DNA of 64,000 bases, from NCBI RefSeq assembly GCF_055900595.2, contig NZ_CM148325.1, one strand, 5' to 3'. The position numbers and the translations under genes are program-made. This document shows, piece by piece, positions 6,860-27,598 of this stretch (its first letter is position 1; every line of letters starts with the position of its first letter). Under the pieces are notes generated by a model. It did no database searches, had not been told where the DNA came from, and saw only the letters and a program-made list of their open reading frames with translations.

Positions 6860-6874
6860 TTAGTATAAAAAAGC
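6860..6874. repeat. Prophage-host junction core (bio-proximal), lambda att core sequence
   Basis: TTAGTATAAAAAAGC (reverse complement of GCTTTTTTATACTAA), with CGCTCAAG host arm to the left and lambda P-arm-like sequence to the right; identical 15-mer at 45587-45601. Confidence 0.85.
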
Positions 6875-7018
6875 TGAACGTGAAACATTAAAAGCCATTA
6901 ATATCAATGCATTACAATATTTTTAGTCTAAAAAATAGACTACATAATGCTACAAAACACAACATACCCAGTCACTATGAATCAACCACTTAGATGGTAT
7001 TAGTGACCTGTAACAGAG

Positions 7019-7062
7019 CATTAGCGCAAGGTGACTTTTTGTCTTCTTGCGCTAATTTTTTG
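7019..7062 (+). terminator. Hairpin plus T-run at the inner edge of the P arm
   Basis: ATTAGCGCAAG...CTTGCGCTAAT stem followed by TTTTTTG; oriented to stop transcription entering from the ybhB side. Confidence 0.45.
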
Positions 7063-7265
7063 TCAAACACATTACGTCGTTTGCTGAATTTACAACCATG
7101 CTCAGTATCTCGATAAGCGCAGAGAAATGATGCAGTGGTGGGCGGATTGGCTTGATGAAAAGGTGTAGCAACCAACATTGCTATATCTCAGATAGCACAA
7201 AGCCTTGCAATCCAGTGCAAAGCTTTGTGTGTCTCAGTTTTGTCTCATCGGTAATTATGTGTTCG

Positions 7266-7565
7266 CTACGATGCAAGAATCCATACCAATAAGCATCCGA
7301 TAATTGGGAAAGAAAAATCCAACAAACTTCCCACATCCCACACGCGTGGATCAAAACCTCCCCACCACGGCATGTTGACACGTTTCCCTTTCCCAAACTT
7401 TTCTATCCAGCGATATTCTGCCTGGGTGTGTTCACGCGCAATGAAGAACGTACAACCGGCTATCGCACCGTAAGCCCAGTTTCCGGTAAAAATACCAACC
7501 AGTACCTGAGCCGCAAAAGCGCAAAGCGAGTGAAGAAATGGAGTGACATCAATGCTCTTAATCAT
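7266..7565 (-). CDS. Small predicted inner-membrane protein, function unknown (accessory gene)
   Basis: 99 aa with hydrophobic segments ([27 protein letters not shown]); start overlaps the tailspike stop (ATGA); last gene before the att site. Confidence 0.5.
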
Positions 7566-9619
7566 GAAACTTCCCCATTGGTTGAAAATATGGCTCCTCC
7601 AACTCCAAGTGTATTTCGTGTTGTGCTCAACCTAAGAGGGCTGGAGTCAGAATTAGAATATCCTGTAGCAGAAATAAAAGATCCTCCACTAATAGTCAAC
7701 TGCGGAACATCGGCTATATCTGAATAAGTTCTGTCAGCAACAGTATTATTTATAGCCACATGTGATCCAAAAAAACTTCTTATTGTTTGGTTTTTAACTT
7801 TACTTCCTTCAATGGTTATCCTACTACCACAGTCAGCAATAAATCCTGAATCTGCATCCAGCGTTGCATTCATAAAAGAAGCTTCAGATCTCTCTACATC
7901 AATCCATCTAATATCTTTTGTGGGATTTGCACCAAATACATGACAAATATTAGAGTTAAACCTTACACCATCTTGGAGGTGCATTAATTTTTTTATATCT
8001 GTACCCCATAGCCTTGGAAAATTAACAGATGCTCCTGCATGGCAATCAAATCCCAGCTCAACCCCTGAGATATCTACAGCCTTTCCGGAAATAACAGCAC
8101 CAGTGTCTGCATTAACGGCTGTTCCACAATTGCGCATATCATTACCAGCAACATCAACACAACCCGCACCATCAATACGCACACCAAGTGCACATCCATA
8201 AAAACCTTTTTCAATATTTGGTTCAAGGACTTTACCACTTGTTTCTGCATCACTTTCTTCAACGTCATGTCGTCTTGCATCAACATATGCTGTATGAATG
8301 CACGTTAATCCACGATATGAGCAATGTATAGTTTTATGGTCGCGTATATTAACATTTGAACCATCTCTTACATTCCATCCTATATAACAATAGCTTGCAC
8401 TTGACCCCTGAAAATCTGCTTTAACATTATAAATACAATTAACTGACGCAACCGTACTCTCTGTGCACCGTTCAAACTTACTTACAGGCATTGATGCCTT
8501 GACATTATTTACCAGTTGCAGGGAAGAGTATCTGCTATAAGAAAAATCACATACGTAATACCCTTCTGGCATATATGCAGCAACACTTTCCTCATCAGGA
8601 GCACATCCGGTATGATATGCACTAATTTTTGCACCAAAACTACCATGAATTCCAACGTAGAACTTTCGAGCACCTGAATACGGATAGAAATTAAGTTCAG
8701 CTTTTTGAGTTACAATAAATGCACAAACATCGCTATCATCTCTATTTTCTTCAATCTGAATAGCAAATACAGGACTTTTTGCTGCATCGCAAATGTAAAA
8801 TAAATATTTGTATTCGTAATACGTCCTAACAGTTTTAGTAAACAAACTGGTATCAGAGAAAACCACTGAGTCTTCTGATATTATTTTAATCCATGATAAG
8901 TCACATCCTGCTGAAATTTCTATTTGCTCATTGAGCACAAAACCGGAAAGAATTTTAATTATGCAAAAATCAATGCCATTTTTCCATAGTGGACGCAGTG
9001 CAACAGCTGAGTTTAGAGCATCACTAATAGATTTAAAATTACCATATTCCCCAACTGTTATTGTGAATGCATACCTGGAATTAAATACTGCGGCACTCTC
9101 TCCAGAGTTAATAGCTGCAGATATCATGTCATAATTTGATATAAAATCATTTGGCGTGATTATTTCTGCGTTTTTATTGTGCTGTGTTCTAAGTTTTGAA
9201 TTTACATGAACACTTTTAACTGCAATACGGGAGTCGTCAACAAGTATTTCATTACCCTCTGTTGCTAACTCTTGTCTTAACTGATCCGGGTCATACTTCA
9301 GCACATTCGGAAAATAGAACTGCTGCACACCGTACGCATCATAAACAGCCATAGAATGGCCCTGTACAGTAACGAATTTGGCAATCTGTCCGTTATATAC
9401 CGGATATCCAGCAGCGTTAATGATGATTGGTTGCGAAACAGGAACGTGAGATCCATCTTCGTTCTCTACATAAACCTGAATCTGGTTTTCAGGATTTACA
9501 GGGGCAGTATCAATTTTACCGATATAAATTTTGCCATTGGCTACGGCTTTAAAAGAACGCGCCATAGTGAAGAGTTGCGAAGGCATACTCACTACAACAT
9601 TGGCTGTAATGTCTGTCAT
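7562..9619 (-). CDS. Tailspike protein with P22 gp9-like N-terminal head-binding domain and a different receptor-binding domain
   Basis: N-terminus [38 protein letters not shown]...VLKYDPDQ matches the P22 tailspike head-binding domain as I recall it; remaining ~570 aa unrelated to P22 endorhamnosidase. Confidence 0.85.
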
Positions 9620-9687
9620 TTAATTTGCTCCAGATACAAGGAATCGCCGCAGCATTGCCACAGTGATGCATTATTAATCAAACAAAG

Positions 9688-9702
9688 AGACCACTGTGGT
9701 CT
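9688..9702. promoter_or_regulatory. Palindromic operator-like site between the tailspike and mnt-like gene
   Basis: AGACCACTGTGGTCT (7-1-7 palindrome), resembling the P22 Mnt operator in symmetry and position. Confidence 0.5.
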
Positions 9703-9765
9703 TATTGAGGATGCAACCAGCAGATAATAAGATGCCGATCCACTCACAAAAGCGAGGCATCAAGA

Positions 9766-10134
9766 ATGGGAAGAGATGACCCGCAATTTAATCTGCGGCT
9801 ACCTTACGAATTAAAGGAAAAACTAAAACAGCGAGCCAAATCCAATGGCCGCTCTCTTAATTCAGAATTAGTTCAGATAGTGACTGATGCTGTATCAAAG
9901 CCATCCAAAATTTCAGGCTATCGAGACGATGCGGAACGCATCGCTGATGAGCAGTCAGAGCTTGTTAAGAAGATGGTGTTTGATACGCTGAAGGATTTGT
10001 ACAAAAACCCACCTGATGGTGGGTTCCATTTATTAGTCTTGCTTTGTGGACGGTATAAGGGATGCATTTGCCTCTTTAGGCTTCAAGGTATACATCCCAC
10101 CATTAAATGGATCTACAGCAAGCCAACCAATTAA
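9766..10134 (+). CDS. mnt: Mnt-like ribbon-helix-helix repressor with ~40 aa C-terminal extension
   Basis: MGRDDPQFNLRLPYELKEKLKQRAKSNGRSLNSELVQIV...DAERIADEQSELVKKMVFDTLKDLYK closely follows P22 Mnt; ORF then continues antisense to the neighbouring lipoprotein gene. Confidence 0.75.
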   Translation: MGRDDPQFNLRLPYELKEKLKQRAKSNGRSLNSELVQIVTDAVSKPSKISGYRDDAERIADEQSELVKKMVFDTLKDLYKNPPDGGFHLLVLLCGRYKGCICLFRLQGIHPTIKWIYSKPTN

Positions 10135-10452
10135 CCCACCAAACACAAGGTTTCCACCAATATACCAACCATTAGCATTGGCTTTGATTGGCAGGGTAAC
10201 TGGTTCGTACCCATCCTTCTCCATAGTGATCTGGTAGCTCTTTTTGCCAAAATAACTACCATCTGACTTGGCAAGAGTTACTCCTTGCGGGGTCTTACCT
10301 TGCGCAACAATCACGCCTGATTCGTCTTTTACCTTAAAGCTCGCACCGGAAGGATTGCTGTTCACTTGCACAAGCTGTGTTTCGTCACCAACAATAGTTG
10401 CGCACCCAGATAACATGATAACGCCAGCAACGACGCCAATAATCCTCTTCAT
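10033..10452 (-). CDS. Lipoprotein with PEGA-like domain, function unknown
   Basis: MKRIIGVVAGVIMLSGC lipobox signal; VNSNPSGASFKVKDESGVIVAQGKTPQGVTL resembles the PEGA motif; convergent with mnt. Confidence 0.6.
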   Translation of the reverse strand: MKRIIGVVAGVIMLSGCATIVGDETQLVQVNSNPSGASFKVKDESGVIVAQGKTPQGVTLAKSDGSYFGKKSYQITMEKDGYEPVTLPIKANANGWYIGGNLVFGGLIGWLAVDPFNGGMYTLKPKEANASLIPSTKQD

Positions 10453-10569
10453 ATCAATTTCCATATTTAAAAAACCGGAAACATCCTAATGACAAACCAT
10501 TCAAATGTGAAGTAGGCAAAAGATGTTTACTTTTTTCATGGTATCCTGCTCAAAACTAAGGAGGTTGGC

Positions 10570-10959
10570 GTGAAGCAATTTCTTACTGCTATGTTCTTAT
10601 TCATATCTTTTGGGGCTACAGCAGAGTGCTGGGTCGTTGGAGATATGCGCGGAATAAGCTATTCAGAACGAAATAATTTCCATCCGGAAGAAGATGGTTT
10701 TAGTGGAACATTCATCATTAAGACAAACGGTGAAGATGCCAGCATCACATATTCTGGGACAGATGCGGGCGGCATGGCTTACAAAGCATTGTCTAAAAAC
10801 TCCATCATAGGAATCGGCGCGAATGGCGAAACTCAACGCGTTATCGACTCATGGGTAATACATCCTACTGGAACAGTTTTAATGTCAAAAACCATTTCCG
10901 GTTATGGAAATATGGATTCAACCAAAGCTTTTGTTGGAAAAGTAAAAAGAAAATGTTAG
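10570..10959 (+). CDS. Small secreted protein, family A/B paralogue 1
   Basis: GTG start after AAGGAGG; signal peptide MKQFLTAMFLFISFGATA then ECWVVGD...STKAFVGKVKRKC; shares motifs with the ORF at 36750-37154. Confidence 0.6.
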   Translation: MKQFLTAMFLFISFGATAECWVVGDMRGISYSERNNFHPEEDGFSGTFIIKTNGEDASITYSGTDAGGMAYKALSKNSIIGIGANGETQRVIDSWVIHPTGTVLMSKTISGYGNMDSTKAFVGKVKRKC

Positions 10960-10983
10960 CGATTGAATCCAATTTCCCATACG

Positions 10984-12825
10984 TTACTGCTGTGTTGCCT
11001 CAGTAGCAAACAGCGGTCTGATGGCATTCGCAGCGTTATTTATCGCTCTTTCATAGGCTGGTGTTCCTGCTTTGGTGTTTGCCAAACGAAGAAGCATATT
11101 CCTTGCTGCTTTGGACTCATACAAGCGCATCATTGCACCAAAACCAGCCTCAATCCCCATTGATACGCCAAGGGTCGCAGTTGCGCCAATCGTCCTTATC
11201 CTGTTGGCTTGCGATTGCCCCGTCTGAGTTACTACATTTGCGGTGTCTGACCTTGCTGTTTGCTGTAGAACTTCATGAAGAGCATCAAGCTCTTTCATGT
11301 GCTTTCCAGAAAAAATAGTGTTGTAAATTTCACCGCCTGACTGAGATTTCAGCTTATTAACTTCAGTGATGAACTTGGCTGGAGAGTCCCCGGCCTTTTC
11401 CGCTATTTTGCTGACGTAAGCTGCACGCATAGCATCTTTCCCCTTATCATCCAGTGCGCTCCAGATTCGTTTCACGTCAGATGGTTTTCTGCTTAATACA
11501 ACGGTATTTATAAGTTCAGGACTGGCTTCACTGCTTGCCTTGTTGAGCTTGTTGGCAATGTTTTTATTAAGCACCTTATTATAAACGTTTGCATAATCGG
11601 AATTTGCTTTAAGGTATTTTGCTGCGTCTGATGCACCGAGGTTTTTAGCAACTGCGTTACGAAGGTCTTTTGACATTGCATTCTCTACCATATTGGTAGC
11701 TGCTTTTGCCTGGTTGGGGAAGACCATAGCATCTCCCTGAACATTAGATCTAAATGCTGTTCTGTGCTGACGCAAGAGATCAAACGTAACATCCAAATCA
11801 GTTGCAGGGTTTGCTAATTCTTCACGTAGGTTACGCAAGGATGTAAGCAGGCTTTGATTGGCAGACGTCCCAAGCCGTTCCTGTCTTGCGATCGCTGTAT
11901 TCAGAGCATTCATGGTATTTGTGGTATCAACTGCGGCATTACCCATTTTATTGGTGACGTCATTGATAACAGCGCCAGCGGCATCCTTCCGCCCCCTTAA
12001 CGTGGTGGTCAGAGATTTCACCACATCATCAGGGTTGTACTCACCAAAACGGTCAAAATAATTGCTTACCAGCTTACTCCGCGTTGCATATTGCTCTGCT
12101 CGCTTTGAGCCCGTCCCGAGCAAAGCCCCCTCGGCATCCTGAGTAAGGCCGCGAGTGAAAGCATTTTTCGGCGGGATAACATCAGATGTCATTGGTGTCA
12201 CGCCCATCGATTCTGATGTGGCAATTTTCTTCGCCACTTCTGGCGCAATATCACCTTTTATAGCCGTTATTCCACGCCCTATTCCCTTTGCTGCTGCGGA
12301 AAGAACACCCTGAGCGGCAAGGTTAACTCCGGCATTTTTAGCTGCATTTTGTGCGAAATCGCCTTTCTGATTTGCGGCCTCTGCCAGCGATCCAATAGCC
12401 ATGCTTCCTGCCGTTCCAACTCCTGGAACTAAATACCCACCAATTGTTTCACCGGCTTGTGCGTATGGGTCTGTCGGTTTGTCTACTGGACGATAAACAT
12501 CATCCAAAACTTTTGGCCCACCAAGCCCCTGACTGATTGCATTAATCAGACTTGCGCCACCCTGCAATACGTCAAATGGTATGTTTACCAGACCACGACC
12601 AGCCTGTTCTGCAATTTGCCCTGCACTTTGACCACCAGTGAGCCAATCGCCAGCTTGTTGCATCAATGATGGTTCTTCACGTACTGGTGCATTATTGGCC
12701 TGATTAACTGTTTGTTGCTGAACAACCTGACCAGCAAAATAATCATCAATGGCGGCTCCAATATCTTCCGTGCTCGTACCATCAGGGAAGGTAAATGTCT
12801 TACCGTTTGCAGTTACTTTCATCAT
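10984..12825 (-). CDS. Ejection (internal virion) protein, P22 gp16-like by size and position
   Basis: 613 aa, Gly/Ala-rich; last of three co-oriented genes after the tail genes, matching the P22 order 7-20-16. Confidence 0.6.
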
Positions 12826-14237
12826 TCCACCGTAAATTGAATGCCTGATTTTGAGGTATATGATCCAACCTGATTCCGTGGTTCTCCTGAAGGTGTCGAA
12901 TCTTGTGCTGGCGCTGCGTCAGTATTCATTGACATATACCGCTTAACGGCACTCCCCAATGATTCACCTTTTTTAACATCCAACCCCAATATCTGACCGC
13001 CATTACGCGATTGTCCAGGGTTGCCATTCGCGCTCATCCACTCGGCTTTAAACTCATTAAACTGCGCGTTTCGTCGCTCAAGGTTTGCCATTGCATCAAG
13101 CCATCTTGCTACCGTCTCAGGGTTATCCATGTCAGTTGGAGCACCCTGTCGAACGATCTCAACGTCTTTATCCGTTGCGGGGCCGGGAGGTAGGAATTTA
13201 AGAACCTGACTGTTAACAAGGGCATTTTGGCGGATGCGCAAATCACGCAATGTTGTATCGCTTCCGGTAAGTTTTGCGAACATGTTCTGTGCGTTACCGA
13301 ACAAACCTGTCGTTGGTTTTTCTGCTCTGAACTGTTGAGCAAGCGCACTCATAGAATTGGCTGAGTTTGATGATGCTGTAGCATTGTTTACAGCCGTCTC
13401 GATGCCTTTTTCCATGTTTACTGACAGCTTAGGTGCTTCGCTAATCAACTGCTGAGCCTTTTCCTGTGCTTGCTGCATCTTAAACCCGAACTCTTGCTGA
13501 TCCAGAGCCAAGCGTTGTGCTGCGATATTGTGCCCAGTCATTGCTGACTGATAGGAAAGGTTTTGCCCTCTCGCCTGAAGTGCTTCTCCAGCCTGATTGC
13601 TGCGGATTGTCTCTGCCAGTTTGCCTCGGTCAATTTCACGACCAGCCATCTTGTCCTGAACAGCAAACGCCTTTTCTGGTCCAAGCGCACCGAGAGACAT
13701 AGTAGTCAGCATGTGTGATAGCTGCTCTGGATTCTGGATACCTGTCTGAATCATCCAGTCAGCATTCGCCCCCACGCGATTTAACCTGTCCTTGTTGTCA
13801 GTAATGAATTTACTGTAGGCTTCCGGTCCCTGGGAAAGAGCGACGTTAGCCCTCATGGCTAAATCGCCCATATCGTTGCGTTGCTGCTCATTAAGACCGG
13901 AAAACGCCTGTTGTGCCTGTGCAACAAACGCTGGATTTTCCTGGGCAAACTTAAATAGTCCAGATGGATCACCAGAAGCCCATGCATCAGCGTGAACCTT
14001 ATTGAACGCACTAATAGCTTTCTGTTGCTGTTCCTGATTGTAAATATCAGCAACTCCAGCCAGACCACGTAACGCGGTCAGACCAATGTTATTTGCACCT
14101 GAGCGAGCCAGTTCATTGTTTTCGCGGATCAGACCAAGCGTTGCGTTAATGTCGCTTGCCTTTGGCGCATTCTCATTTTGCGTACCGATGCCAGCCAGAA
14201 AACCACCAGAATTAATACCCTGTTGCCACGTAGCCAT
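12822..14237 (-). CDS. Ejection protein, P22 gp20-like
   Basis: 471 aa (same length as P22 gp20 as I recall), overlapping stop/start with neighbours. Confidence 0.6.
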
Positions 14238-14247
14238 TGATTACCCC

Positions 14248-14940
14248 TTAAAACAACGAGCCAAGCAGACCAAGACCGCCGCCGATCGCAGCCCCCCACG
14301 GAGTTGATGAACCAATTAATTTCGCAAGTCCGGCCCCAGCAATAGCACCAGACGCACCTCCGCCAATAGCAGATTGCATTGCTGATGGTCTGTTGGCATT
14401 TGCCGCTGCAAGAGCCGCACTTTGCTGCGAAATCTGACTCATATTGTTGGCATATGTTTGCCCGGCGTTTGCCTGACCTTGCAGTGCGCCAAGACCAATA
14501 TTTGCCAGATTCTGGTAGTTGTTCATCTGACCAGATAGCCATTGCTGACCAAGCGTTGGTGCGATTGTTGCTAACTGATTACCGGTTGCAGTGGAACCCA
14601 ATCCACCTGTTGCTTCCGCTGCCGCCAGACTCTGATAGCGAGCCTGACCAGCAAGATCTTTGTACTGCTGAGAGTTGTAATACTGGTTAAGTGCCTGACC
14701 TTGCCCTTCCAGAGACGATAAGTTCTCGAGGCTGCCGACATACTTATCAGCCAGAGGAGTAAACGGCTTCAGGTTGTTCATGATGGTGTTGAACTGCTGA
14801 TTTTGCAGGTCTGCGGCATACTTCTGGGCTTCTGCGGCATACTTTGCGCTTTTATCAGAACTGCCACCTTTGCCGCCTTTTTCAGGGCACCAAGGTTCCT
14901 CGCCGCACAGTTTTCTGCCCAGCTTAAATGCATATAACAT
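14248..14940 (-). CDS. Ejection protein, P22 gp7-like
   Basis: 230 aa; Gln/Ala-rich middle and Gly-rich hydrophobic C-terminus; position after the gp14-like gene. Confidence 0.55.
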   Translation of the reverse strand: MLYAFKLGRKLCGEEPWCPEKGGKGGSSDKSAKYAAEAQKYAADLQNQQFNTIMNNLKPFTPLADKYVGSLENLSSLEGQGQALNQYYNSQQYKDLAGQARYQSLAAAEATGGLGSTATGNQLATIAPTLGQQWLSGQMNNYQNLANIGLGALQGQANAGQTYANNMSQISQQSAALAAANANRPSAMQSAIGGGASGAIAGAGLAKLIGSSTPWGAAIGGGLGLLGSLF

Positions 14941-14942
14941 GG

Positions 14943-15398
14943 CTATCTCCCGTGATTCAGGAAGTCGATTAGTTCTTCGCGTGTGGCGCTGTAAAAAGTC
15001 ACGTCATCCACGCCTTTAAAGTATTTCTTGATGGTTCCGACACGCTTAAGGCCAATCATTGCGCAGTAAATCTGCCCGTGGCGGAATTTGCGTGCGGCGA
15101 ACGATGTGACGCACTGAACGGTGGTGTTAGTCAGAATGTATCGCCAGAAAGCCAGCCCGATTTCCTTGCTGAAGCCGCGAATCTCTGGCAGGTACATGGC
15201 GTGGCAATCAAAGGTCAGCGGCTGAATCTCCTGATAGTAAACAATTCCGCCGAACTGCCCGTGCACGTTAACCTCAAAGTAACGGCATTCAGGTTTGTAG
15301 TCGTATCCATCACCGTTGTTGCTCCCGGCGATAATGTCAGGGTGATTTCCTACGGCTTCTATCAGGTCGATGTTTCGCGTTGGTTTGAATGTAATCAT
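14943..15398 (-). CDS. P22 gp14-like protein
   Basis: 151 aa ORF between the tail needle and ejection-protein genes, in the P22 order. Confidence 0.5.
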   Translation of the reverse strand: MITFKPTRNIDLIEAVGNHPDIIAGSNNGDGYDYKPECRYFEVNVHGQFGGIVYYQEIQPLTFDCHAMYLPEIRGFSKEIGLAFWRYILTNTTVQCVTSFAARKFRHGQIYCAMIGLKRVGTIKKYFKGVDDVTFYSATREELIDFLNHGR

Positions 15399-16099
15399 CA
15401 GTCAATCAGCCCATGTAATCTAAGTGCCGTTTCAAGCGCCAGAATACGCTGCCGCGCCTGCTGCAAACCTGTAGCGAGTGCTGCGACTTCGGATTGTGTG
15501 TACGTAGTGCCGACTGTGTATGACTGGTTAGCGTTGAATGAGCCAAGAAGAGGTGTACCTGTGGCTGCAGTCCATCCGGTATTTCTTGCTCCAATAACCT
15601 GAATTCCATCAACTGAATATGATGTTTTTACATCCAGCGGTGACGCAAGAGACTGCGATTCGGTTACGGTTTTCGATACGTAATCACTCTTAATGTCAGA
15701 TACATCGCTTTCTACGCCATCCAGTCTTTGGTCAACAGTGACCAGATGCGCCTGAATATCGATAACCTCATCCAGCAAGTAATCAACATCGCTACGCAGT
15801 ACGACTATCTTCCCTTCGGCGGTTGTTAACCTGACCTCAAGGAGATTTATCGCTTTTGTGTTTGCGGTGATTCTTGAATCGTGATCTGCCAGTTCGACGT
15901 CCTGTTCATCGTTTTTCACCTGAGCATCGTAAGCGCCCTGACCAGCCTGATTTGCCTTCCCGGCAATTGCGCCGACATCAGCCCCCTGATTAATGACATA
16001 CAGCAGGTAAGACTGGCTGAATATATTGCGTGGAAGGATTGATGTATCTAGTCGTGTAGCCTGAACCACAACAGGTGTATTGAGATTCGAATCAGCCAT
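15398..16099 (-). CDS. Tail needle protein (P22 gp26-like)
   Basis: 233 aa; [26 protein letters not shown]-terminus and ...[36 protein letters not shown]-terminus match the P22 gp26 trimeric coiled-coil needle. Confidence 0.85.
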
Positions 16100-17517
16100 T
16101 ACTCGATCCTTATCTGGCAGCCTGACAGAGTGACAGGTGACTTAGTGATAACACGCAATTTGAAGCCGACATTTTTCCTGATGCGCCCAACTCGCTTCCA
16201 CAAAACGCGTTTGTCGTAAACGAACGGTTCATTCTGCTCAATCATCTGCTCACGCCCGTAATTGATGCCGTCAGTGGTTGCAGAGAGAAAAAGGCGGTCA
16301 GCATACTGCGCAACTCCAGTTGACGATTCAACTTCAAGGTCGAAAACTCTGGCGTTATCCGCTTTGAACAACGGAGTAAACAGCAGGTGTTCCTGCTGCT
16401 TGTCGTACTGACTGCTGATATCGAACTGCAATTTCCCGGTCACCGATTCCAGCTTATCGCCGCACGTTATCTGATTTCCTTCGTAAATGAAGTCGATAGC
16501 GCGGTACACATCGTCATACAAGCCTGTTTTCAGTACACACCATTGCGGACCATTGGCGCTTGAAGATGCGTCGTACACGAGGACGTGACGCGGAAGGTGG
16601 ATAATCAGCAACTCATGAGCATCAAATCTCAGAGACTCCATCACACCATCAGCCAGTTCATCAGCAGTGTAGGAGCGTAGTATTTTCTCAATGCTCGCGC
16701 TGGCGATTGGTGATACCTGACCGGAGCCGATGATGTATACAGATGGCGCACCAGTTGCCGGATTGCTGATGAACGCATACGAATCAGCGAATGGCGTTTT
16801 GCAGTAAGTCCCGGCAATGCCTTTCTGCACCATCAGCGATGGCTGTGCGACATACAAAGCGGCACCAACGGTGGTTGCGCCAGTCAGGGAGAAATATTCA
16901 ATCGTCGATGAACCAAAGCAGACGATGAAGTCTCGCCATGTTCCGATGCCGATGATGCCGTCCGGCTGCGATTCTGCGCGATATTGTGCGCTGTAGCGGT
17001 CAGGATGTGATTCGTCTTCAAGGTCAGTGATAAACCATGAATCAGTGCCGTCTTTTGACCACGCATAACGGCCACGTAAGCGCGTAATGTCGCGGACTGA
17101 GCCTAACTCGTACTGTGTGAATCCGCTGTCTGTAGGCCAGTTTGAGACGGTTTTAACCGTGCCATCATAGCGATACTCGACCAGTTGACCATTAACGCCT
17201 ACCGCCTGTGATGTCCGACCATGCGCCATTGATACACGACCACTTCCGGCGACGTCACCGACTTCGCTTTCGCCTTTGTAGAGCTTGCCGCCACACACAC
17301 GATAAACAGCATTCTGCGCCATGTTGTACTCGACGCCGCGCGATACGCCGTTTACATCAGAGCGTTTGGCAATGCCCGGGAATGAGCGAAGATATCCGCT
17401 GCTGTTCAGGATTTCTTTGGGTGTAGCCAACATATTCACTGGCAGATAGTCGATATAGTCGGCGTTTCGAAAGTCTTTGCCGACACCTTTCATAAGCGGA
17501 AGTTGCTGAATCGGCAT
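16099..17517 (-). CDS. Tail hub protein (P22 gp10-like)
   Basis: 472 aa, same length and position as P22 gp10. Confidence 0.7.
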
Positions 17518-17526
17518 TTATTCACC

Positions 17527-17988
17527 TCACGTACTCGGATCATCTTTCTCGATGTAAAACCGATTCCACGTAAACGCGCTTTTGTTACCACTACCGCGAG
17601 GCATGTCATTTCGCCGCTCAAGTGGTGGTATTTTGGTTAAAGCGATACAGATTGTCTGATATGCACTGTCAGCAGCGGTAAGGAGAACGTCTGACGGCTG
17701 AATGACGTTATCCATGCACACTTGCACAGCGAGTTTCAAAGCGACGCCATCATTTGCCCATGCAGGGATACCTGAATCATCGTCAGGTAACGGCATGATG
17801 CCATTTTCTGTATCCGCAAACTGATATCCAAGCTCGATACCTTTCGCCTGCCATGCTGCCATCATGTCTTCGAGGTCATTAATGGCATCTTCAATTGCCT
17901 GAGGGTCGGCATCTGTCAACGTGGCATTGGAATACAGCCCGGCTTTTCGTAAAGCCTTAAGAACGAGATCACCCTTCGTTTTCGCCAT
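17527..17988 (-). CDS. Head-completion / tail adaptor protein (P22 gp4-like)
   Basis: 153 aa immediately downstream of the coat region, in the P22 order 5-4-10-26. Confidence 0.65.
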   Translation of the reverse strand: MAKTKGDLVLKALRKAGLYSNATLTDADPQAIEDAINDLEDMMAAWQAKGIELGYQFADTENGIMPLPDDDSGIPAWANDGVALKLAVQVCMDNVIQPSDVLLTAADSAYQTICIALTKIPPLERRNDMPRGSGNKSAFTWNRFYIEKDDPST

Positions 17989-18196
17989 CTTCTTCCGCCT
18001 TAGCCACTTTTTGCTTCGTTGCGGTTTCTTCAGGAGTTTTTACCCAGCCTTTTTTCAGGTGAGATTTAACTTCTTCGTCATCAACAATGATGTAATCGAC
18101 AGTAAACTGACCACAGGTGATCATGTTGCCCGGCTTATAGAGCATTGTTCGTGCCATTGTCTTCTCCCAATAAAAATGGGGCCGAAGCCCCACCAA
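17969..18196 (-). CDS. Small hypothetical protein between coat and gp4-like genes
   Basis: 75 aa ORF with acidic C-terminus; co-oriented and tightly packed. Confidence 0.35.
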   Translation of the reverse strand: MVGLRPHFYWEKTMARTMLYKPGNMITCGQFTVDYIIVDDEEVKSHLKKGWVKTPEETATKQKVAKAEEDGENEG

Positions 18197-18198
18197 AA

Positions 18199-19458
18199 TT
18201 ACTGCCCGGCAATAACGATGCCCGTATATTCAGGAACAAGTACAGAGCAACCGTACAGAGTGGTGAAACGAGCAGTGGTTACGCCTTTGATGTGGTCGAA
18301 GGCGTAAGACATGATCAGCGTAGCGCCCTGCTCGGTGGTTGCTGTCATTACCTGTGGACCCTGACCAGTCGGGAACGCCAGTTTGCCGTACATCAGCTCA
18401 ACAGAACCATCAGCCCAGAACAGGTTAGCAGGTGCTGCGTTCTTGTTGAGAATGGTGATTGCTGCAGTTTCTGCCGGCTTGGCATCGACGTTTGCATATG
18501 GACGGCTCGCAACATCGGCATTTTCAACAGGGAGAATCTTTGGAGAGATTGTTACGGTGGTTCCTGCTGTGTCTACTGCCAGAACGCGGAATACCTGCGG
18601 CTGCCCGGTGGTATCTTTGGTGATCTGGTGTACGGAATTCACACCTGCGATGGTAAACGCATCGCCAACCTGCAAGCCTTTAGCAGATACCGTAATAGTC
18701 CCCTGTCGGTTATCAACTGGCATACCATTTGAATCTTTCGCTTCAACCTTGTGTTCAGGTTGGCCTGATACTGTCAAGGATTCAGCGCTTCCTTTCGGTA
18801 ATCGACCAGAAATATCGGTCTTGTAGCTATCAAAGGAAGCAACCGGAGGGATCTGCGCTTTTTCGTATGCTGTCAGGGTTGCGCCCTGAGCGTAGGCACG
18901 GTGCCCAAGCTCGCCAGCAAGGTCTTTGTAGTTGAAGGGGTTCCAGAAAGAGCGACGGTTGATACCCTGAGGTACACCAATCGCCGTCATGGTGGCATCA
19001 ATATCTGCCGCACCATTCCACAAGGCAAGGCCCCGTGAGCCATTTTCTGAGGCAGGAATTGCGACCACGTTAGTAGCACGCTGCGTGACCATGGAAATCA
19101 GGTCAGAGTCAATCTGTGCAGCAAGGCGCATACCTGCGGCGCGACCAGCTTCAGTTTTATGTTCCGGGTCACGCATTTCACGCGCATCCAGAGTGTACAG
19201 AATGTTTTTCGGCTCCTTGAACACAGAAGGAACAAGGCGCTGAACCAGTGCTGTTGGCGTTTTGCCGCTGAGGTCTAGGCCTTCCTCAATGTTCATGTGG
19301 TAATGCTGCGGACGATACAGAACATCACCTGCTCGCTGCATTGCTGTATCACCGGGACGGAATTTTTTAGCGTTACGGGAAACTACGCAGGCAGCCTCAA
19401 AGCCTTCAACGTAGTTTTCGAACATGATTTCAAGGTCTTTTGCTAATTGGTTAGCCAT
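18199..19458 (-). CDS. Major capsid (coat) protein, P22 gp5-like
   Basis: 419 aa; follows the scaffold gene; MANQLAKDLEIMFENYVEGFEAACVVSRN. Confidence 0.8.
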   Translation of the reverse strand: MANQLAKDLEIMFENYVEGFEAACVVSRNAKKFRPGDTAMQRAGDVLYRPQHYHMNIEEGLDLSGKTPTALVQRLVPSVFKEPKNILYTLDAREMRDPEHKTEAGRAAGMRLAAQIDSDLISMVTQRATNVVAIPASENGSRGLALWNGAADIDATMTAIGVPQGINRRSFWNPFNYKDLAGELGHRAYAQGATLTAYEKAQIPPVASFDSYKTDISGRLPKGSAESLTVSGQPEHKVEAKDSNGMPVDNRQGTITVSAKGLQVGDAFTIAGVNSVHQITKDTTGQPQVFRVLAVDTAGTTVTISPKILPVENADVASRPYANVDAKPAETAAITILNKNAAPANLFWADGSVELMYGKLAFPTGQGPQVMTATTEQGATLIMSYAFDHIKGVTTARFTTLYGCSVLVPEYTGIVIAGQ

Positions 19459-19476
19459 GCTTAATGCTCCGATAGG

Positions 19477-20370
19477 TTATTTTTTTGCCTTTTTAGCGGC
19501 GAAATACGGCGTCCAGTCACCAGTTTCCAGCGCCTTGGCTTTCAGTTTGTCGAGGTTATTGATTACTGCGCCGTTGCTCCCCTTAACTGTCGGGATTGTG
19601 GCTGCCGTGGTTTTTGCTTTTGGCATGATTCTGGCCTTCGATTCGATACGTTCCAGCAGACGACCAATTGCTACGGGGTTGGTAGCTTCTGCCAGTTGCT
19701 TGCGCAGTTCAGCGTTGCGACCGAGCGCCAGAACAACGATTTCCGGCTTCTCTGACTCAAACAGGATCGCGTTTTGTGTCTCGATGGGGATTTCCTCGAG
19801 TACGGCCTGCTCAGCTTCCTGATAGCCAGGAACTTTGAGAGCCTTAACACGTTGCTGATATTTGGATAATCGCTCTTGATAGGCAGCCTGAAGCTCCTGC
19901 TCCTTCTGCTTGCGAGCCATCTCCTGTTGCTGGTACTTGCCGTTATCCTCTGCCCACTTAGCCATGCGTTGCTGGTAGATTTCTTCATCGAAACCGATGT
20001 CCTCATCATCCAGTTTTGGCATTCGCGGTGGTTGAGTGATTACCGGCTGCTGCTCGACAGATTTCTGAGACTGACGCATCAGCTCTTTCAGCTCGCGATC
20101 TTTCTCTTTAATCGTCTTGCGCAGGTGTTTTACCAGTCCATGCTCTGCGCTATCTTCGCTGGTTGGCGAATCCAGCTTTTCATCACCAAAGTAGAATTCC
20201 TGCTCTGATTCGTCGTCATCAGTTTCAGTAGCTTCCTCTGCATCATTGCCGGAGGACTCACTGCCATCTTCTGTTTCGACTTCTTCAGCCAGTTCGACAT
20301 CATCAGGAATCTGCTCTGACGCGTCGGTTTCGATTTCAACTTCTGGTGTGTTTTCTGCCATCTGGTCCAT
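19477..20370 (-). CDS. Scaffolding protein, P22 gp8-like
   Basis: 297 aa, highly acidic N-terminus, coiled-coil-rich, between portal and coat. Confidence 0.75.
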   Translation of the reverse strand: MDQMAENTPEVEIETDASEQIPDDVELAEEVETEDGSESSGNDAEEATETDDDESEQEFYFGDEKLDSPTSEDSAEHGLVKHLRKTIKEKDRELKELMRQSQKSVEQQPVITQPPRMPKLDDEDIGFDEEIYQQRMAKWAEDNGKYQQQEMARKQKEQELQAAYQERLSKYQQRVKALKVPGYQEAEQAVLEEIPIETQNAILFESEKPEIVVLALGRNAELRKQLAEATNPVAIGRLLERIESKARIMPKAKTTAATIPTVKGSNGAVINNLDKLKAKALETGDWTPYFAAKKAKK

Positions 20371-20460
20371 TTGTTACCCCTGTTTACTCGATGTTCAGCC
20401 CATCGGAAGGCAATAGGGTGCCAGGCCTCATAAAGACAGCCATTGCACGTTATGGGTTAA

Positions 20461-22662
20461 TTACTGCTGTGGTTGTTGCTGAGTTGATTTTTGCAGGATG
20501 CTGTTGATGTCCATGCGCTGCGCATGACCCTGTGCCTGACTTTTCAGGACAAGCTCTGCATCAGCACGGGCATTGTCTCCTTGCTGTTGCTGGAACTGTC
20601 CGAGCAGTTTCAGAGCCTCGCGGATATCAGATTTCTGCTGGCTATCGGCAGATGCGAGGATTTTCACAACATTTGCCGCTGCAACCTGAGCATCAGTCTG
20701 TGCCTGGAATGCTTTAACCTGAATGGCTGCCTGTTCGTTCTGCGCTTTCTGCAATTCAGCCTGACCAGCAAGAAGCTGACCTTGCGCTGCAACCATAGCC
20801 GGATCTGGCTGACTGGCCTGTTGTTGTTTCGCCTGTTCAACCATCTGCTGTTCTTCAGGCGTTCTCGGCTTGATAACGCCAGACAGAAGCAACTGATTGC
20901 GGTTGTATTCTTTCAGGTCGTCCATCCCTTCGCCGTCCATATTGTCGAGAATCATCGACGATACAAGGTCGTGCTTCGGAGTTCCTGGTGGGATAAGTGC
21001 CAGCATGGAAAGTAACGACTTAACCGTTGCATCACGGCGAGTAGCGAACGACTGGCCAACATCGACAGTCACTTCATAGTTACCCTGCGAAAGGTCATTA
21101 AGCGCGATAACCTGCCCTGTCTGACGGTCAACCACTTCACCAGTCATCAGCGCCACGTCATCGCTGCCGTCCTCATTAACGATACGCATCGGCGTATCAC
21201 TGCCATAGACTTCACGAGCCATAGAAAGCCACACGACGCCAGCACGGCGCATGGATTTAGCCATGTTGTCCATGTAGATATAGGACTGCGTGTCCATCCG
21301 GTTAAAGATGCTATCAACGGTATCGGTAGCGACGTTGCTCGGCATGTTCTCAAGCTGCGACGCACCTGTAATTTGCTGAATAGCCGTTCCGGTGTACTGC
21401 AATAGCCCAGCAAGAGCAGGAGGCATTTGTGTCGGAGGTGTATAACTGCTGACCTGAGCCTGCGCAGTAATATCTCCGTTTTTGTTTTTCAGACTGACCA
21501 TCGGCAGGAACGCCGGGCGCTTTTTGTTGCGCTCCGCCCAATGAGTGGCAAGAGGACCAGGAATCATGTCAACATCAACTACAGGAATGCCATCGCCGCC
21601 AGCCTGAGTGGCGTTATCTGCAATCATGGAAACCATCAGGTTCTCAAGACGCTGTGCATCCATCGCTTTTGCTGCGTGGCCTTCGATTCGCTCCTGATTA
21701 TCAACAAATGATCGACGCCCATATACCGGGATGAGAGGAATATGTTCGCCCGGAATACGCTTCGGTTCTTCCAGCCATTCAGCGCCAGACAGAAGACCGC
21801 AATAAACTCTGCGTTTCTTCACTGTCCGCTCACCAATCAGTTCGAATGCGCCATCGGTCAGCTCGTCGACAATATCTTTGATTTGCTCTTCATCATAGAT
21901 TGCCGTTTCTCCGCTGACAGGGTTGCGCCATGCCGTGAGCTTCACCTTCTCTATGCGAACTTCGTAGTAGCGACCAACATAGATAGCATCAGGGGTTGAC
22001 CAGTCATATTGAGTGCCAGTGTCATCACGAGAAAGGCTTGCTGCGATGGAATCAGGGTATTCAGCCTCGAACGCTTTAGGCGTCATGGAGAACATTTCCA
22101 TAGCCCACATAGCATCAGAGCGGTCATATTGCTTGCTGTCCTGATCGAAGAAGACGCATGTCGCCGGGTCGTAAACAGGAAGAAGGCTGATGCGTCGCTG
22201 CTCGTTACTTGGGTCCATTTCATCTTCGTAATCGGCACACATGCGGAAACAACCGAATCCGCCCGTTACGGCATCATCAAATGCGTTATCACACGCTTCG
22301 CCACCGGATGTTTCCTGATAGTCAGCGCGGAATTTGCCGTTCATCTTTTCGGCTAACGCTTCCGATGCCTTATCGTCCTTCGGCCTGAATTTAACGCTTA
22401 TGCGATTCTGTCGATACTCGCCAATGATGCGATCACATTCACGGGCAATCTTATTCAGTTCAAAGCGCGGGTAATGCTCAAACCTTCCTTCATCAAATGA
22501 GTAACCAGCGTTTGTGCTGCCTTCCCACTGTGCGCCGGACACCCGGACGAAACGTTGAGCCTCAATAATCTGCTCTCGCATATCCTGCGTTGCTGACCAG
22601 GCATTATCAAAGTTGCACAGCACCTTGCGATGCCAGTAAGTCATCTTTCTATCATCAGCCAT
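20461..22662 (-). CDS. Portal protein, P22 gp1-like
   Basis: ~733 aa; Gln-rich C-terminal barrel (QQMVEQAKQQQASQPDPAMVAAQGQLLAGQAELQKAQNEQ); start taken at MADDRK, upstream ATG also possible. Confidence 0.8.
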   Translation of the reverse strand: MADDRKMTYWHRKVLCNFDNAWSATQDMREQIIEAQRFVRVSGAQWEGSTNAGYSFDEGRFEHYPRFELNKIARECDRIIGEYRQNRISVKFRPKDDKASEALAEKMNGKFRADYQETSGGEACDNAFDDAVTGGFGCFRMCADYEDEMDPSNEQRRISLLPVYDPATCVFFDQDSKQYDRSDAMWAMEMFSMTPKAFEAEYPDSIAASLSRDDTGTQYDWSTPDAIYVGRYYEVRIEKVKLTAWRNPVSGETAIYDEEQIKDIVDELTDGAFELIGERTVKKRRVYCGLLSGAEWLEEPKRIPGEHIPLIPVYGRRSFVDNQERIEGHAAKAMDAQRLENLMVSMIADNATQAGGDGIPVVDVDMIPGPLATHWAERNKKRPAFLPMVSLKNKNGDITAQAQVSSYTPPTQMPPALAGLLQYTGTAIQQITGASQLENMPSNVATDTVDSIFNRMDTQSYIYMDNMAKSMRRAGVVWLSMAREVYGSDTPMRIVNEDGSDDVALMTGEVVDRQTGQVIALNDLSQGNYEVTVDVGQSFATRRDATVKSLLSMLALIPPGTPKHDLVSSMILDNMDGEGMDDLKEYNRNQLLLSGVIKPRTPEEQQMVEQAKQQQASQPDPAMVAAQGQLLAGQAELQKAQNEQAAIQVKAFQAQTDAQVAAANVVKILASADSQQKSDIREALKLLGQFQQQQGDNARADAELVLKSQAQGHAQRMDINSILQKSTQQQPQQ

Positions 22663-24158
22663 CATCCAACTCCGCAAGGTATGTTGTAGCTTGAGTAATC
22701 AATCTCTTTAGGATCTTTGATGTCTCGCATCTGTATTGCATAACGCCTCATCATGTAGCCATAGCGAACAGCAGAAAGGATGTCGTCATTTAGCTTGACG
22801 ATCTTCCCGTTCTCATCGCGGTGATACAGGCGAAACTCTTCAAAGAATGGCTCGCAGGTGTTAAATACCTTGAAACGACCGTCGAGCATCATGTCGCGTA
22901 TCTCTGCTATCCCTGGTTCGACCGCATTACCTCCATCAGGCCATGTTGCATGATCTGGCAACATGTCGAACCCAGCGTCGGCGTATTGTTCCTTGAGCTG
23001 AGCGCCGCCTCCCTTTTCGTGCTGATGCCCGTCATGAGGCCAAGCCGTAGGGGTGTTTTTGCTCCATGCTTTAACAGCACTCCATGCCTCTGTCGCCTTC
23101 TTCTGTTTGGCCTTCCAGACGCGAGAAAGATAAATCACGTCCTCGTCTTTATCCCACCAAAGCTGGATATGTGCCTGTGGGTGATCCCATCCGAAGTCCA
23201 TTGCATTGATGACGTAGAAGTGATCAGGACACTCGAACGGCTGACACTTAATCGTCTCTTCCGGTATCTGGAAGATTCGACCGCTACCCATCGTAGGAAT
23301 ACCGCGAGCACGCGCCTCTCTCTCATGCTCGGGATAGGATGCGATGATTTGCTCTTTCTGCTCGTCGGTGTAGTGCTCAGCGTCATAGATGGTCATGTTG
23401 ACCACTTTCTGCGACTTGCTGGGATTCTTCAGGAACTTGGTAACAACGTCAGACATCCCCATCAGCGGGGTAAACGTCAGAATTGAGAATTGCCCGTATT
23501 TGTTGGTACGGGTAAGACCTTCGCCATAAATGCTGTATGGTGGCTCTTCGTCAAACCACACGCCGTGGATTGTGTCACCCTGCCAGCGAGCGCGGCCTTG
23601 CGAGTATGGTTTGAAGTAGCAGATTGAAATGCCATCTTCAACGCCATCGGCCGTGTGATGCTTAACCAGAAGATGATCAACAAGGTTCGGAAAGAAAGGA
23701 GACTTCTTCCAGCTAATGATGTCTTCTTTAGGTATGGAACCGTAGCCTGGCTCATCATTCTCTTCGATACGACCACACAGGATGCGTTGAGTCGTTTTGG
23801 TTACAGTCTCGTTTGTCTCGCCGCCAATCCAGAAGACAACAGGCTCATAGAAACGCTTACCTTTCCACTCACCGCCATATTTACCATCAGCAGGATAGCC
23901 TTTTGTGCCCGGATAACGCCCGGTAAGGTGAAACGCGACTTCAGCAGCACCAGTAAATGACTTACCAAGCTGGTTACCAGCCATAAAACATCGCTCTGGA
24001 TAGTCATGCCCGGCGTCGATGAACTCACGCTGTTTGCTGTATGGCGTAAATTCATATAGCAGGTGTGTGTTACGGTAGTTCTCTTCTTCTTCGAGTAGCT
24101 CGAGCAATTCGATTTGCTCTTCGTCGCTCAGGTTATCAAGAATCGCGTCCAGTTCCAC
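22662..24158 (-). CDS. Terminase large subunit (P22 gp2-like)
   Basis: 498 aa; [15 protein letters not shown] Walker-A-like ATPase motif. Confidence 0.85.
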
Positions 24159-24630
24159 GGTTGAATAGCTCCTTGATACGAGAGCGTCGCTTATCGCGAT
24201 CTCCCTTATCAGGTGTCACGTCTTCAACTTGCGACTGCTCTTTGAGGCCCAAATCACGGGCGATGATGTTAGCGTTGAGAAGGTCAGCAGCAGCGCCAGA
24301 GAATTTCTGGTCGTAGATGACCTGTTCTGCTCGCGTAACGACTTCAGATAAATCTTCTCGCAGGCGATATGTGCGCCATGTTTCAAGCGTCACATCAATG
24401 AACAGAGTGAGTCCGGTAATGGTCATCGCTCGCATCTTGGCGATAGGCTCTTGTATCACTTCACCCTGATACGAGAACGCCTTCATCTCCCATAGCGGGT
24501 TAGCTTCCACCCACTCGAAGTATTCACAACAAGCAGCCCACAGCGCCTCAGGCGATTCGAATTTAGGGTTTCGCCCATGACTACTGCGGGCCTCCCAAAA
24601 TCGGTTGCCCTTTGGTGCTGCCATATTCAT
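24136..24630 (-). CDS. Terminase small subunit (P22 gp3-like)
   Basis: 164 aa directly upstream of and overlapping the large terminase gene. Confidence 0.7.
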
Positions 24631-24647
24631 CTCACTTAGTTGTTATT

Positions 24648-25046
24648 TCAGGCTGATGACTCTTTCGCGCTTTCAATCAGTGACTGCTTCAGCAAGTAAC
24701 CTTCGAGCATCCAGATTTTGTTTACAGCATTCTGCCGGGCAATCTTCCGACCAATTTCTGCATCAAAGTTTTCCGGGCTTGCACAGGCACTCTCTCCGGT
24801 GACGGTGAAGCCATTCTTCAGCACCAGTACGCAGAAAGTGAGCAACTTCAATGGTGATAAATCACGATCGCCTTCTTCTGGTTTTTCCCTGCCACAATAT
24901 TCGTTGCTGGAAATGGCACCATTACGTCCATCATAAGCAGTAAAGTAATGCTCGCTTTTAATCACGTCTTCGATGTGCTGAGGAGTGATTCGCGGGGCTG
25001 TTTTGCCTTTCTCAACGATTTCTTTTTCGATTTGCTGGTCGCTCAT
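24648..25046 (-). CDS. Hypothetical phage protein (Gp49-like)
   Basis: 132 aa ORF upstream of the terminase genes; family call from memory only. Confidence 0.45.
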   Translation of the reverse strand: MSDQQIEKEIVEKGKTAPRITPQHIEDVIKSEHYFTAYDGRNGAISSNEYCGREKPEEGDRDLSPLKLLTFCVLVLKNGFTVTGESACASPENFDAEIGRKIARQNAVNKIWMLEGYLLKQSLIESAKESSA

Positions 25047-25334
25047 AATTATGACCCTGTAGAGTGGTTGCTTGATTAGGATGTCTTTCCATCAGTCCGC
25101 CACCACAAAGAATCTTTTTTGCCATAAGGCAGGAGGTTCATCTTTCAGTGGCTGCCGGTGTTATTTCCCCACTTACTGGCTTGGGTTGCTTCGTGGTACT
25201 GCCGTAACTGGTTGCCAAGAATAAATTCCGGTTTCATTATCAAGCCCACCCGTAGATGGGCTTTGTAATGGATAGCCGTTGCTCAGTTCTCGTAATGCTT
25301 TGATTTTTCCGATAACGCAGTTTTGCGTTTGCCA

Positions 25335-25856
25335 TCAGCACGCGATATCGAGAGTCAACTGCAGTTGCTCGCGCCAGTACTCAACATTTGCTTCAATAAC
25401 CGGCTTATCCCATCGCCAGCGAGCCATCTCTCTTGCCCCATTGCTGGCTTTTGATTTCCGGTCATCGCGAATGCGACATGCTTGCTCATATTTCTGCTGC
25501 TCAGTCAGTTCACCGCGAAGCAGACTATCAATGTGCAGGTCGCACCACACAGCAAAACGAGCATCACACCAACGGGCAAATGCAACTGAAAGTTTTGGAT
25601 GTAGCCACGTACCACCACCCCTGTCCTTTCGTGCCTTGCTGGTTTTTACATACCTCGATTGTGAGGGATGTAAAATTTGAGATTCTTTCCCGGTCAACGC
25701 TTCGTCTAAAGCACGAACGTATTCAAGCGTTTCTGCCAAACGCATCCAGTTATCAATGCGTTTCCCAAATCTCTCAGCAACACCTGTGACGTTGATCCAA
25801 CCATCAGTGTTGAAACTGACAATTTCACCTTTGTAATTAAGTGGCACGATATTCAT
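25335..25856 (-). CDS. KilA-N domain protein
   Basis: 173 aa; TWLHPKLSVAFARWCDARFAVW resembles the KilA-N/APSES DNA-binding motif. Confidence 0.6.
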   Translation of the reverse strand: MNIVPLNYKGEIVSFNTDGWINVTGVAERFGKRIDNWMRLAETLEYVRALDEALTGKESQILHPSQSRYVKTSKARKDRGGGTWLHPKLSVAFARWCDARFAVWCDLHIDSLLRGELTEQQKYEQACRIRDDRKSKASNGAREMARWRWDKPVIEANVEYWREQLQLTLDIAC

Positions 25857-26057
25857 AACGTTTACCTACCATTTGAAATGAACCTTTGCCGCATAGGAAA
25901 CCAGCCCACCGAGGCTCGCCAGCACTAACTGGTATCCTCAAAGGCCCATTCCAAAGGGGCAGGTTCGGTGTAAAAAACATGCGTTGCGGTACGCATTTAT
26001 TGCAAAAAGCCCCGCATCGCGAGGCTCATTAAATTGACTTTGTGATTTGCAAAAAAA

Positions 26058-26495
26058 TTATTTCAGGCATTGCGTCCTGATGTATTCCTGCAGGTAGTTA
26101 ACCTGCGCGGTTATCTTGTCGATTCCACTTCGGAGACGGTAATAATTGAGTTCAGCATCTGCTGTAAGTCTTGGGCTTTCTCCATCGCCCATGCCGCTGG
26201 CTCCGGTCTTTGACTTTGCACAGGAGGCGGCGACTTGCAGCCGCTTACGCCCAGCAGAAACATCATCACGGAGACTTTCGATAGTCGCGTTAGCATCAGC
26301 AAGCTCCTTTGTATATCTGGCATCGAGTTCTGCTACATCACGTTGACGCTTCTGCATATCAGCGATGATGGATGTGGCTTTATCGCGCTGGTCTTTGTAG
26401 GCGATGGCGTTATCACGGTAATGATTAACAGCCCATGACAGGCAGACGATGATGCAGATAACCAGAGCGGAGATAATCGCGGTGACTCTGCTCAT
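26058..26495 (-). CDS. Rz: Spanin inner-membrane subunit Rz
   Basis: [31 protein letters not shown] matches lambda Rz N-terminus; follows endolysin R. Confidence 0.85.
26111..26323 (-). CDS. Rz1: Spanin outer-membrane lipoprotein Rz1, embedded in Rz in another frame
   Basis: Internal ORF with lipobox LLGVSGC and proline-rich stretch [13 protein letters not shown]; true start probably the internal MM. Confidence 0.6.
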
Positions 26496-27275: not shown

Positions 27276-27598
27276 GTCTTACCCCCAATAAGGGGATTTG
27301 CTCTATTTAATTAGGAATAAGGTCGATTACTGATAGAACAAATCCAGGCTACTGTGTTTAGTAATCAGATTTGTTCGTGACCGATATGCACGGGCAAAAC
27401 GGCAGGAGGTTGTTAGCGCAGCCTCTTGCCACCCGCTTTCACGAAGGTCATATGTAGAAGGCCGCAGCATAACTATCACTGATGAATTCAGGATAGCCAG
27501 TGGCTACGGCTCAGTTTGGGTTGTGCTGTTGCTGGGCGGCGATGACGCCTGTACGCATTTGGTGATCCGGTTCTGCTTCCGGCATTCGCTTAATTCAG

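Follow-up and report, generated by a model that had tools for sequence, protein, structure and literature searches.

A P22-like prophage tailspike with a common head-binding anchor and an acquired beta-helix body

The window analysed here (the whole stretch of 64,000 nt from contig NZ_CM148325.1, assembly GCF_055900595.2) carries a P22-like prophage whose late operon ends with a tailspike gene. On balance, the product of this gene is best read as the receptor-binding protein (RBP) of an intact-looking phage, in which a P22-type head-binding anchor carries an acquired beta-helix that would bind, and most likely cleave, a polysaccharide; the receptor is probably not a single O serogroup. That the protein is a virion RBP is indicated by the position of its gene, its domain content and its near identity to the spikes of infectious phages.

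The tailspike gene

The open reading frame proposed in the initial annotation is found exactly where it had been placed, on the minus strand and with an ATG start. The gene, its start signal and the parts of its 685-aa product are as follows.

7562..9619 (minus): tailspike gene, 685 codons plus stop, ATG start, from the ORF listing
9628..9631 (minus): Shine-Dalgarno-like GGAG, 9–12 nt upstream of the tailspike ATG, from direct reading of the upstream sequence
9281..9619 (minus): P22-type head-binding (virion attachment) domain, aa 1–113, Pfam PF09008
9176..9280 (minus): neck or linker with recombination junctions, aa 114–148, including the start of the ‘RTQH(D/N)KN..DF’ cap motif
7565..9175 (minus): receptor-binding body, aa 149–685, predicted as one long right-handed beta-helix
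7565..8893 (minus): sub-module of the body, aa 243–685, shared near-perfectly with the 729-aa tail fibre of the HEMP4 and E. coli 118UI type

An identical gene (100% in nucleotide sequence) is annotated ‘phage head-binding domain-containing protein’ in E. coli EC332, which was isolated from chicken meat in Vietnam. PHROG 5662 matches the protein over its full length, and NCBIfam gave no match anywhere in it. Over the full length, the amino acid sequence matches the HZ41 phage spike (OM022251, unannotated there) at 99.6% identity and the ‘tail spike protein’ of Escherichia phage JEP4, a Lederbergvirus (MT740315, QOC67869), at 97.4%. Both were isolated as infectious phages, which argues that the tailspike is functional in real phages. 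The initial annotation had named full-length identity to an already characterised tailspike as what would overturn its reading; near-identical spikes do occur in these two isolates, but neither is biochemically characterised.

A promoter scan around the gene did no better than on shuffled sequence, and a terminator scan returned weak hairpins only. A short hairpin followed by a T-rich tract (9688..9702, minus strand), some 70 nt ahead of the tailspike start, is a weak match to the pattern. In P22, a terminator read through by late antitermination is found at this position.

The apparently intact prophage and the neighbouring genes

The P22-like (Lederbergvirus-type) prophage that carries the gene is apparently intact. 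Its limits, and the neighbours referred to below, are:

6860..45600 (approximate extent, strand not assigned): P22-like prophage, between ybhB and ybhC in the lambda att region
44443..45513: integrase of the tyrosine type, 356 aa, from the EC332 annotation
45648..46931: ybhC
7266..7565 (minus): 99-aa ORF with three hydrophobic segments, the downstream neighbour of the tailspike gene and not part of the spike

By the EC332 annotation, the prophage genes comprise int, xis, early regions, terminase, portal, scaffold, coat, gp4, gp10, needle and three DNA-transfer proteins. The late operon is a complete P22-like one that closes with the tailspike gene, which follows the genes for gp10, the tail needle and the three DNA-transfer proteins. 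JEP4 has the same gene order at the end of its late operon as the EC332 prophage, and its megablast match to the window starts at position 6860.

It is very improbable that the gene is a decaying remnant, with no current function, in a defective prophage. Such a remnant could be suspected from the adjoining Mnt/Arc-like gene, which is annotated as a pseudogene, and from the rearranged immI region, but the 685-codon frame is intact and has a Shine-Dalgarno sequence, all of the prophage morphogenesis genes are present, and the gene is 97–99.6% identical to those of isolated infectious phages. The Mnt/Arc-like repressor ORF (9766..10134, plus strand) is aberrant in its C-terminal third and is the RefSeq pseudogene of EC332. 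At the same site, the FORC_082 prophage has ant/arc genes, which are missing from the prophage of the window. The absence of ant/arc and the aberrant repressor ORF together indicate that the immI region has been remodelled, and this region is different in each of the lysogens examined. Two small genes (10033..10464, minus strand, and 10570..10959, plus strand) separate the ejection-protein genes from the tailspike gene; they code for a predicted lipoprotein of 143 aa (PHROG 6823) and a secreted protein of 129 aa (PHROG 2651). P22 carries superinfection-exclusion and immunity genes where these two sit.

The start of the 99-aa ORF overlaps the tailspike stop (ATGA). The ORF belongs to PHROG 1443 (function unknown), has no Pfam match, and is 100% identical in JEP4 and 87% identical in HEMP4 and the 118UI prophage. 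It is absent beside the body in the lytic phages 92CQ and VEc3. Homologues at 75–80% identity occur in many lambdoid phages near the tail-fibre/att end, including a ‘putative membrane protein’ of phage 21. The ORF was considered as a cassette partner of the body, and this was rejected because the 75–80% homologues lie beside unrelated fibres, both in numerous lambdoid phages and in Gally, a P22-like phage. Possibly the ORF is a moron associated with lysogeny.

The EC332 chromosome (NZ_AP039429) shows an apparent large inversion relative to the K-12 order (1.83–1.88 Mb and 3.08–3.13 Mb): gnd and bio are only some 246 kb apart, and the segment from msbA to ybjD is reversed at 3.08–3.13 Mb. A second match to the tailspike query occurs elsewhere in this genome, possibly the head-binding gene of another P22-like prophage, and raises the possibility of a prophage-mediated rearrangement.

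The head-binding domain

The first part of the protein is a P22-type head-binding domain, as the initial annotation had recognised from its likeness to P22 gp9. Pfam Head_binding (PF09008) is matched over 1–113 of its 113 positions (E 3.5e-65). In phmmer searches of PDB sequences, P22 gp9 aligns to aa 1–116 (E 3e-49), with 85 of 112 residues identical (76%), and Sf6 gp14 aligns to aa 1–160 (E 1e-68), with 94 of 102 residues identical over aa 1–102 (92%) and 29 of 65 thereafter. The spikes of CUS-3, HK620 and 720R6 are 95–97% identical over about 115–118 residues. The limit of about 115 residues claimed for this similarity is right for P22, whose match ends at 116, but not for the other P22-like spikes, which fade gradually and without a sharp stop; similarity reaches aa 172 for Sf6, 187 for epsilon34 and 242 for 611R6.

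P22-like tailspikes are homotrimers bound to the tail hub, six copies per virion. By analogy with the P22 and Sf6 structures that align to the N-terminal domain, residues 1–113 would dock trimers of this protein onto the tail hub.

The neck and its nested junctions

The neck (aa 114–148) has low pLDDT values in the AlphaFold model described below. Matches to other P22-like spikes end at aa 115–127, and the match to the 92CQ fibre starts at aa 129 and is near-perfect from aa 149. A second boundary lies within the body: by BLASTP, the HEMP4/118UI fibre is nearly identical from about aa 243 and roughly 55% identical over aa 141–242, and nine E. coli genomes match the window at 98% over nt 7562–8926 (gene nt 694–2058; aa 232–685). 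In place of the single junction near residue 115 that had been supposed, the comparisons reveal nested breakpoints near aa 119–128, 148 and 243. In each of the 24 family members, irrespective of adaptor type, the body starts with the ‘RTQH(D/N)KN...DF’ motif. Sf6 also has this motif, which is a plausible recombination joint.

Exchange of the body between phages

The domain swap put forward in the initial annotation is well supported by three lines of evidence: the contrast between common head-binding DNA and a rare full gene, the occurrence of the body on other adaptors, and its foreign codon composition. DNA of the head-binding part is present in more than 1,100 of 5,426 complete E. coli genomes at 90–95% identity, whereas the full tailspike gene is present in only six of them. 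The GC3 of the body is 22%, compared with 40% for the head-binding part (overall GC 43%), so that its composition is foreign; the structural genes of the prophage have an overall GC of 50%.

The body itself recurs behind unrelated N-terminal modules. It is 97% identical, from aa 129 to the end, to a 614-aa tail fibre of the 130-kb phage 92CQ; 89% identical, from aa 141 to the end, to a 729-aa fibre with a T7-type N-terminus in HEMP4 and nine E. coli prophages; and 47% identical, from aa 144 to the end, to gp55 (567 aa) of Vectrevirus VEc3. More distant homologues are found behind five Pfam adaptor types, those at 36–69% identity having PF09008, PF18668, PF12571 or PF03906. Two homologues, P0013 and P0018, have an SGNH esterase added at their C-terminus. 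The body was acquired through horizontal exchange, and the protein as a whole is a textbook modular tailspike of ordinary design.

Fold and sequence family of the body

Structure prediction had been proposed as a check on the nature of the body. AlphaFold, run as a monomer on a 24-sequence alignment, models it as a right-handed beta-helix with high confidence (mean pLDDT 85.5, and above 90 across almost all of residues 180–685). The predicted beta strands reach the C-terminus, and there is no separate C-terminal domain. Foldseek searches against the PDB and BFVD agree with a beta-helix, the structural neighbours being phage RBPs, depolymerases, lyases and hydrolases. The earlier statement that this part of the protein is unlike the P22 endorhamnosidase is thus true of its sequence but not of its predicted fold, which belongs to the same broad class of right-handed beta-helices.

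Sequence searches returned far less. Beyond about residue 160, no PDB sequence was matched by either the single protein (phmmer) or the 24-sequence profile, and Pfam and NCBIfam found nothing in the body, with no significant Pfam match to PF13229 (Beta_helix) or PF12708 (Pectate_lyase_3). PF13229 is matched by one of 24 close homologues and by 10–22 of 39 distant homologues; judged from these profile matches, the body belongs to the Pfam beta-helix group at the superfamily level only. An SGNH/GDSL hydrolase domain of the phage G7C gp63.1 type is absent from the tailspike by Pfam, and no CAZy-type signature was found in it.

An exhaustive HMMER scan of 1.84 billion representative proteins gave 197 hits, with about 12 close full-length relatives at 50% clustering. 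The family profile also matches, along its entire length, a wider superfamily at about 25% identity; among its members are RBPs with GDPD, Mtd_N, RBD_prop and BppL_N partners, which come from phages of Gram-positive hosts. Ten polar residues on successive coils (Q232, D240, D250, D358, R418, D419, N424, R426, H442 and R449) are conserved both in the close family and in the superfamily at about 25% identity, which makes them the first to consider as parts of a putative binding or catalytic groove.

The initial annotation had called the body an enzymatic domain. This goes further than the data allow: the resemblance to depolymerases is confined to the fold class, and no activity has been demonstrated for Andhra gp15, the closest of the solved structures. 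The beta-helix might instead be a non-enzymatic adhesin that binds reversibly without cleavage, activity being supplied where needed by an added domain such as the SGNH esterase of the two homologues. This alternative is considered unlikely, as charged residues are strongly conserved on consecutive coils even at about 25% identity, which is more typical of an active site or fixed groove than of a passive scaffold, and most characterised podovirus beta-helix spikes, namely the tailspikes of P22, Sf6, HK620 and CUS-3, are enzymes.

A body that both binds and cleaves remains the preferred reading, cleavage of a polysaccharide being plausible. With the spike docked on the virion by its N-terminal domain, the beta-helix (aa ~149–685) would be the host-recognition module and, from its fold class, would bind a surface polysaccharide. 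Most likely it would also cleave this polymer, so that the virion could advance to the outer membrane; there the needle and the three DNA-transfer proteins, whose genes lie immediately upstream of the spike gene, would take over.

Host distribution and the receptor

In Lederbergvirus prophages, the RBP subtype normally goes with the O serogroup of the lysogen (PMC10408124). O-antigen clusters were read in every complete genome carrying the tailspike gene, and in 118UI. The comparison covers six genomes and spikes of this type only, and is correlative. The clusters found were:

EC332: rmlBDAC-wzx-glf O cluster, not named by NCBI; common to 18 genomes, none of them another lysogen
FORC_082: O5 cluster
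PCP07083: O7 cluster
MS 198-1: O11 cluster
CB7286: O17/O44/O73/O77/O106 family cluster
118UI: O15 cluster; here the same body is on a T7-type adaptor

NCBIfam gave no name for the wzx or wzy of EC332. A single O-antigen cluster common to all lysogens was considered and rejected, as direct inspection revealed six different ones. The spike genes of the five lysogens are 98.9–100% identical despite five different O clusters and, with the O15 strain carrying the same body, the usual tracking of O serogroup by RBP subtype is not seen for this spike in this small sample. The att sites also differ, being ybhC/ybhB in EC332 and FORC_082, and argW next to intS in PCP07083 and CB7286. Given the differing att sites and immI regions, the 98.9–100% identity of the spikes makes these look like separate, recent acquisitions.

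Phage JEP4 lysed 32 of 67 chicken isolates (48%), including 28 of 38 belonging to phylogroup A (PMC8425383). A preprint on E. coli HS phages mentions JEP4 only in a phylogeny, and a literature search on VEc3, HZ41, HEMP4 and 92CQ found nothing on their receptors. Taken together, the six O clusters and the lysis range of JEP4 argue against a single-serogroup receptor.

These observations bear on the most conventional interpretation of the body, as a depolymerase specific for the host's own O antigen, as in P22, Sf6 and HK620, with a narrow host range defined by serogroup. Such an enzyme is the default for Lederbergvirus tailspikes (PMC10408124), the fold of the body is depolymerase-like, and the EC332 O cluster is a defined type that is common to 18 genomes. 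However, that cluster is present in none of the four other full-gene lysogens (O5, O7, O11 and O17-group), the same body occurs in an O15 strain, and JEP4, with a spike 97.4% identical, lysed nearly half (48%) of a diverse strain panel. An O-antigen-specific depolymerase is accordingly thought rather unlikely. By the same evidence, the earlier proposal that the protein targets the surface polysaccharide of this particular host is doubtful if the O antigen is meant, with six lysogens having six O clusters.

For the favoured reading of a spike that binds and most likely cleaves, the receptor is unlikely to be a single O serogroup, and is more likely to be one glycan that many E. coli have in common, or several glycans. 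A tentative extension of this reading is that the body founds a family of phage receptor modules for a glycan present across E. coli O serogroups, which they would recognise and perhaps degrade; such a glycan could be the LPS core, enterobacterial common antigen, colanic acid or another common polymer. A shared-glycan receptor would explain why lysogens have six O clusters and why JEP4 has a wide lytic range, and would also explain the reuse of the body by P22-like, T7-fibre-type and large baseplate phages. The body would then be a serogroup-independent ‘plug-in’ RBP, and distant kin of the staphylococcal picovirus RBPs.

Insertion sequences are present at the 5′ end of three of the O clusters: IS1 after galF in FORC_082, IS4 inside galF in MS 198-1, and ISAs1 between galF and wzx in 118UI. 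They may silence O-antigen expression, in which case the three lysogens may be rough; this would point to a receptor other than the O antigen. The colanic acid cluster of FORC_082 has a frameshifted wcaJ and a truncated fcl, which could be an assembly error.

Implications

The combination of a conserved anchor and an exchangeable receptor-binding domain is already well documented, and near-identical genes have been deposited from JEP4 and HZ41. Novelty is limited to an uncharacterised receptor-binding family and its unexpected host distribution. The family is rare: it has about 12 full-length representatives, is covered by neither Pfam nor NCBIfam, and by sequence has no relative of solved structure. 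The distribution of the spike breaks the usual rule linking tailspike type to O serogroup. Should the receptor turn out to be a glycan that many E. coli share, the module would be of use in engineering broad-range phages or tailocins and in diagnostics, and would represent a new depolymerase or adhesin family to describe.

Comparison with known systems

The protein shares its N-terminal head-binding domain with P22 gp9 (76%), Sf6 gp14 (92%), and HK620 gp9 and the CUS-3 spike (95–96%). As in other P22-like tailspikes, its gene lies at the end of the late operon, and the architecture of head-binding domain, neck and beta-helix is the same. The bodies of the P22 and Sf6 endorhamnosidases, the HK620 endo-N-acetylglucosaminidase and the CUS-3 endosialidase have no sequence similarity to it beyond about aa 160–190; a comparison with the HK620, Sf6 and CUS-3 spikes, also proposed in the initial annotation, thus found a shared N-terminus only. 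For P22 gp9 (residues about 120–666), no body homology was detected, the phmmer alignment stopping at aa 116 and the family profile matching N-terminal regions only. For Sf6 gp14, the alignment ends at aa 160–172 and covers only the neck and the ‘RTQHDKN’ cap. Two further features set the protein apart from P22-like spikes: the modelled helix runs to the C-terminus, and the distribution of lysogens does not follow one O serogroup. The tailspike is a member of the P22-like family by every testable feature except the serogroup link, but does not belong to the body families of P22, Sf6, HK620 or CUS-3.

Its closest counterparts are in JEP4 and HZ41, which have the same 99-aa ORF downstream. JEP4 has a mosaic P22-like backbone, with 67% of a 24-kb query (window 6800–31000) covered at 96% identity. 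Both are free phage isolates, whereas the prophage of the window is integrated at the lambda att region and differs from them in immI.

Among solved structures, the RBP of a Staphylococcus epidermidis phage, Andhra gp15 (PDB 8egr), superposes over most of the body helix, with an identity to the body of only 14–16%. It is a 19-coil beta-helix (PMC9710869). Profile comparison of the body with Andhra gp15 gave only a weakly positive hhalign result (probability 48%, E 1.9e-4), confined to 135 columns of the N-terminal cap. Andhra gp15 differs in having its own N-terminal attachment, a loop plus coiled coil, and a Gram-positive host, with wall teichoic acid as the presumed receptor. The fibres of 92CQ, HEMP4/118UI and VEc3 belong to the same body family as the tailspike, but their virion-attachment modules and phage types are unrelated: 92CQ is a 130-kb phage with baseplate genes, HEMP4 is temperate with a T7-type fibre N-terminus, and VEc3 is a member of the Autographiviridae.
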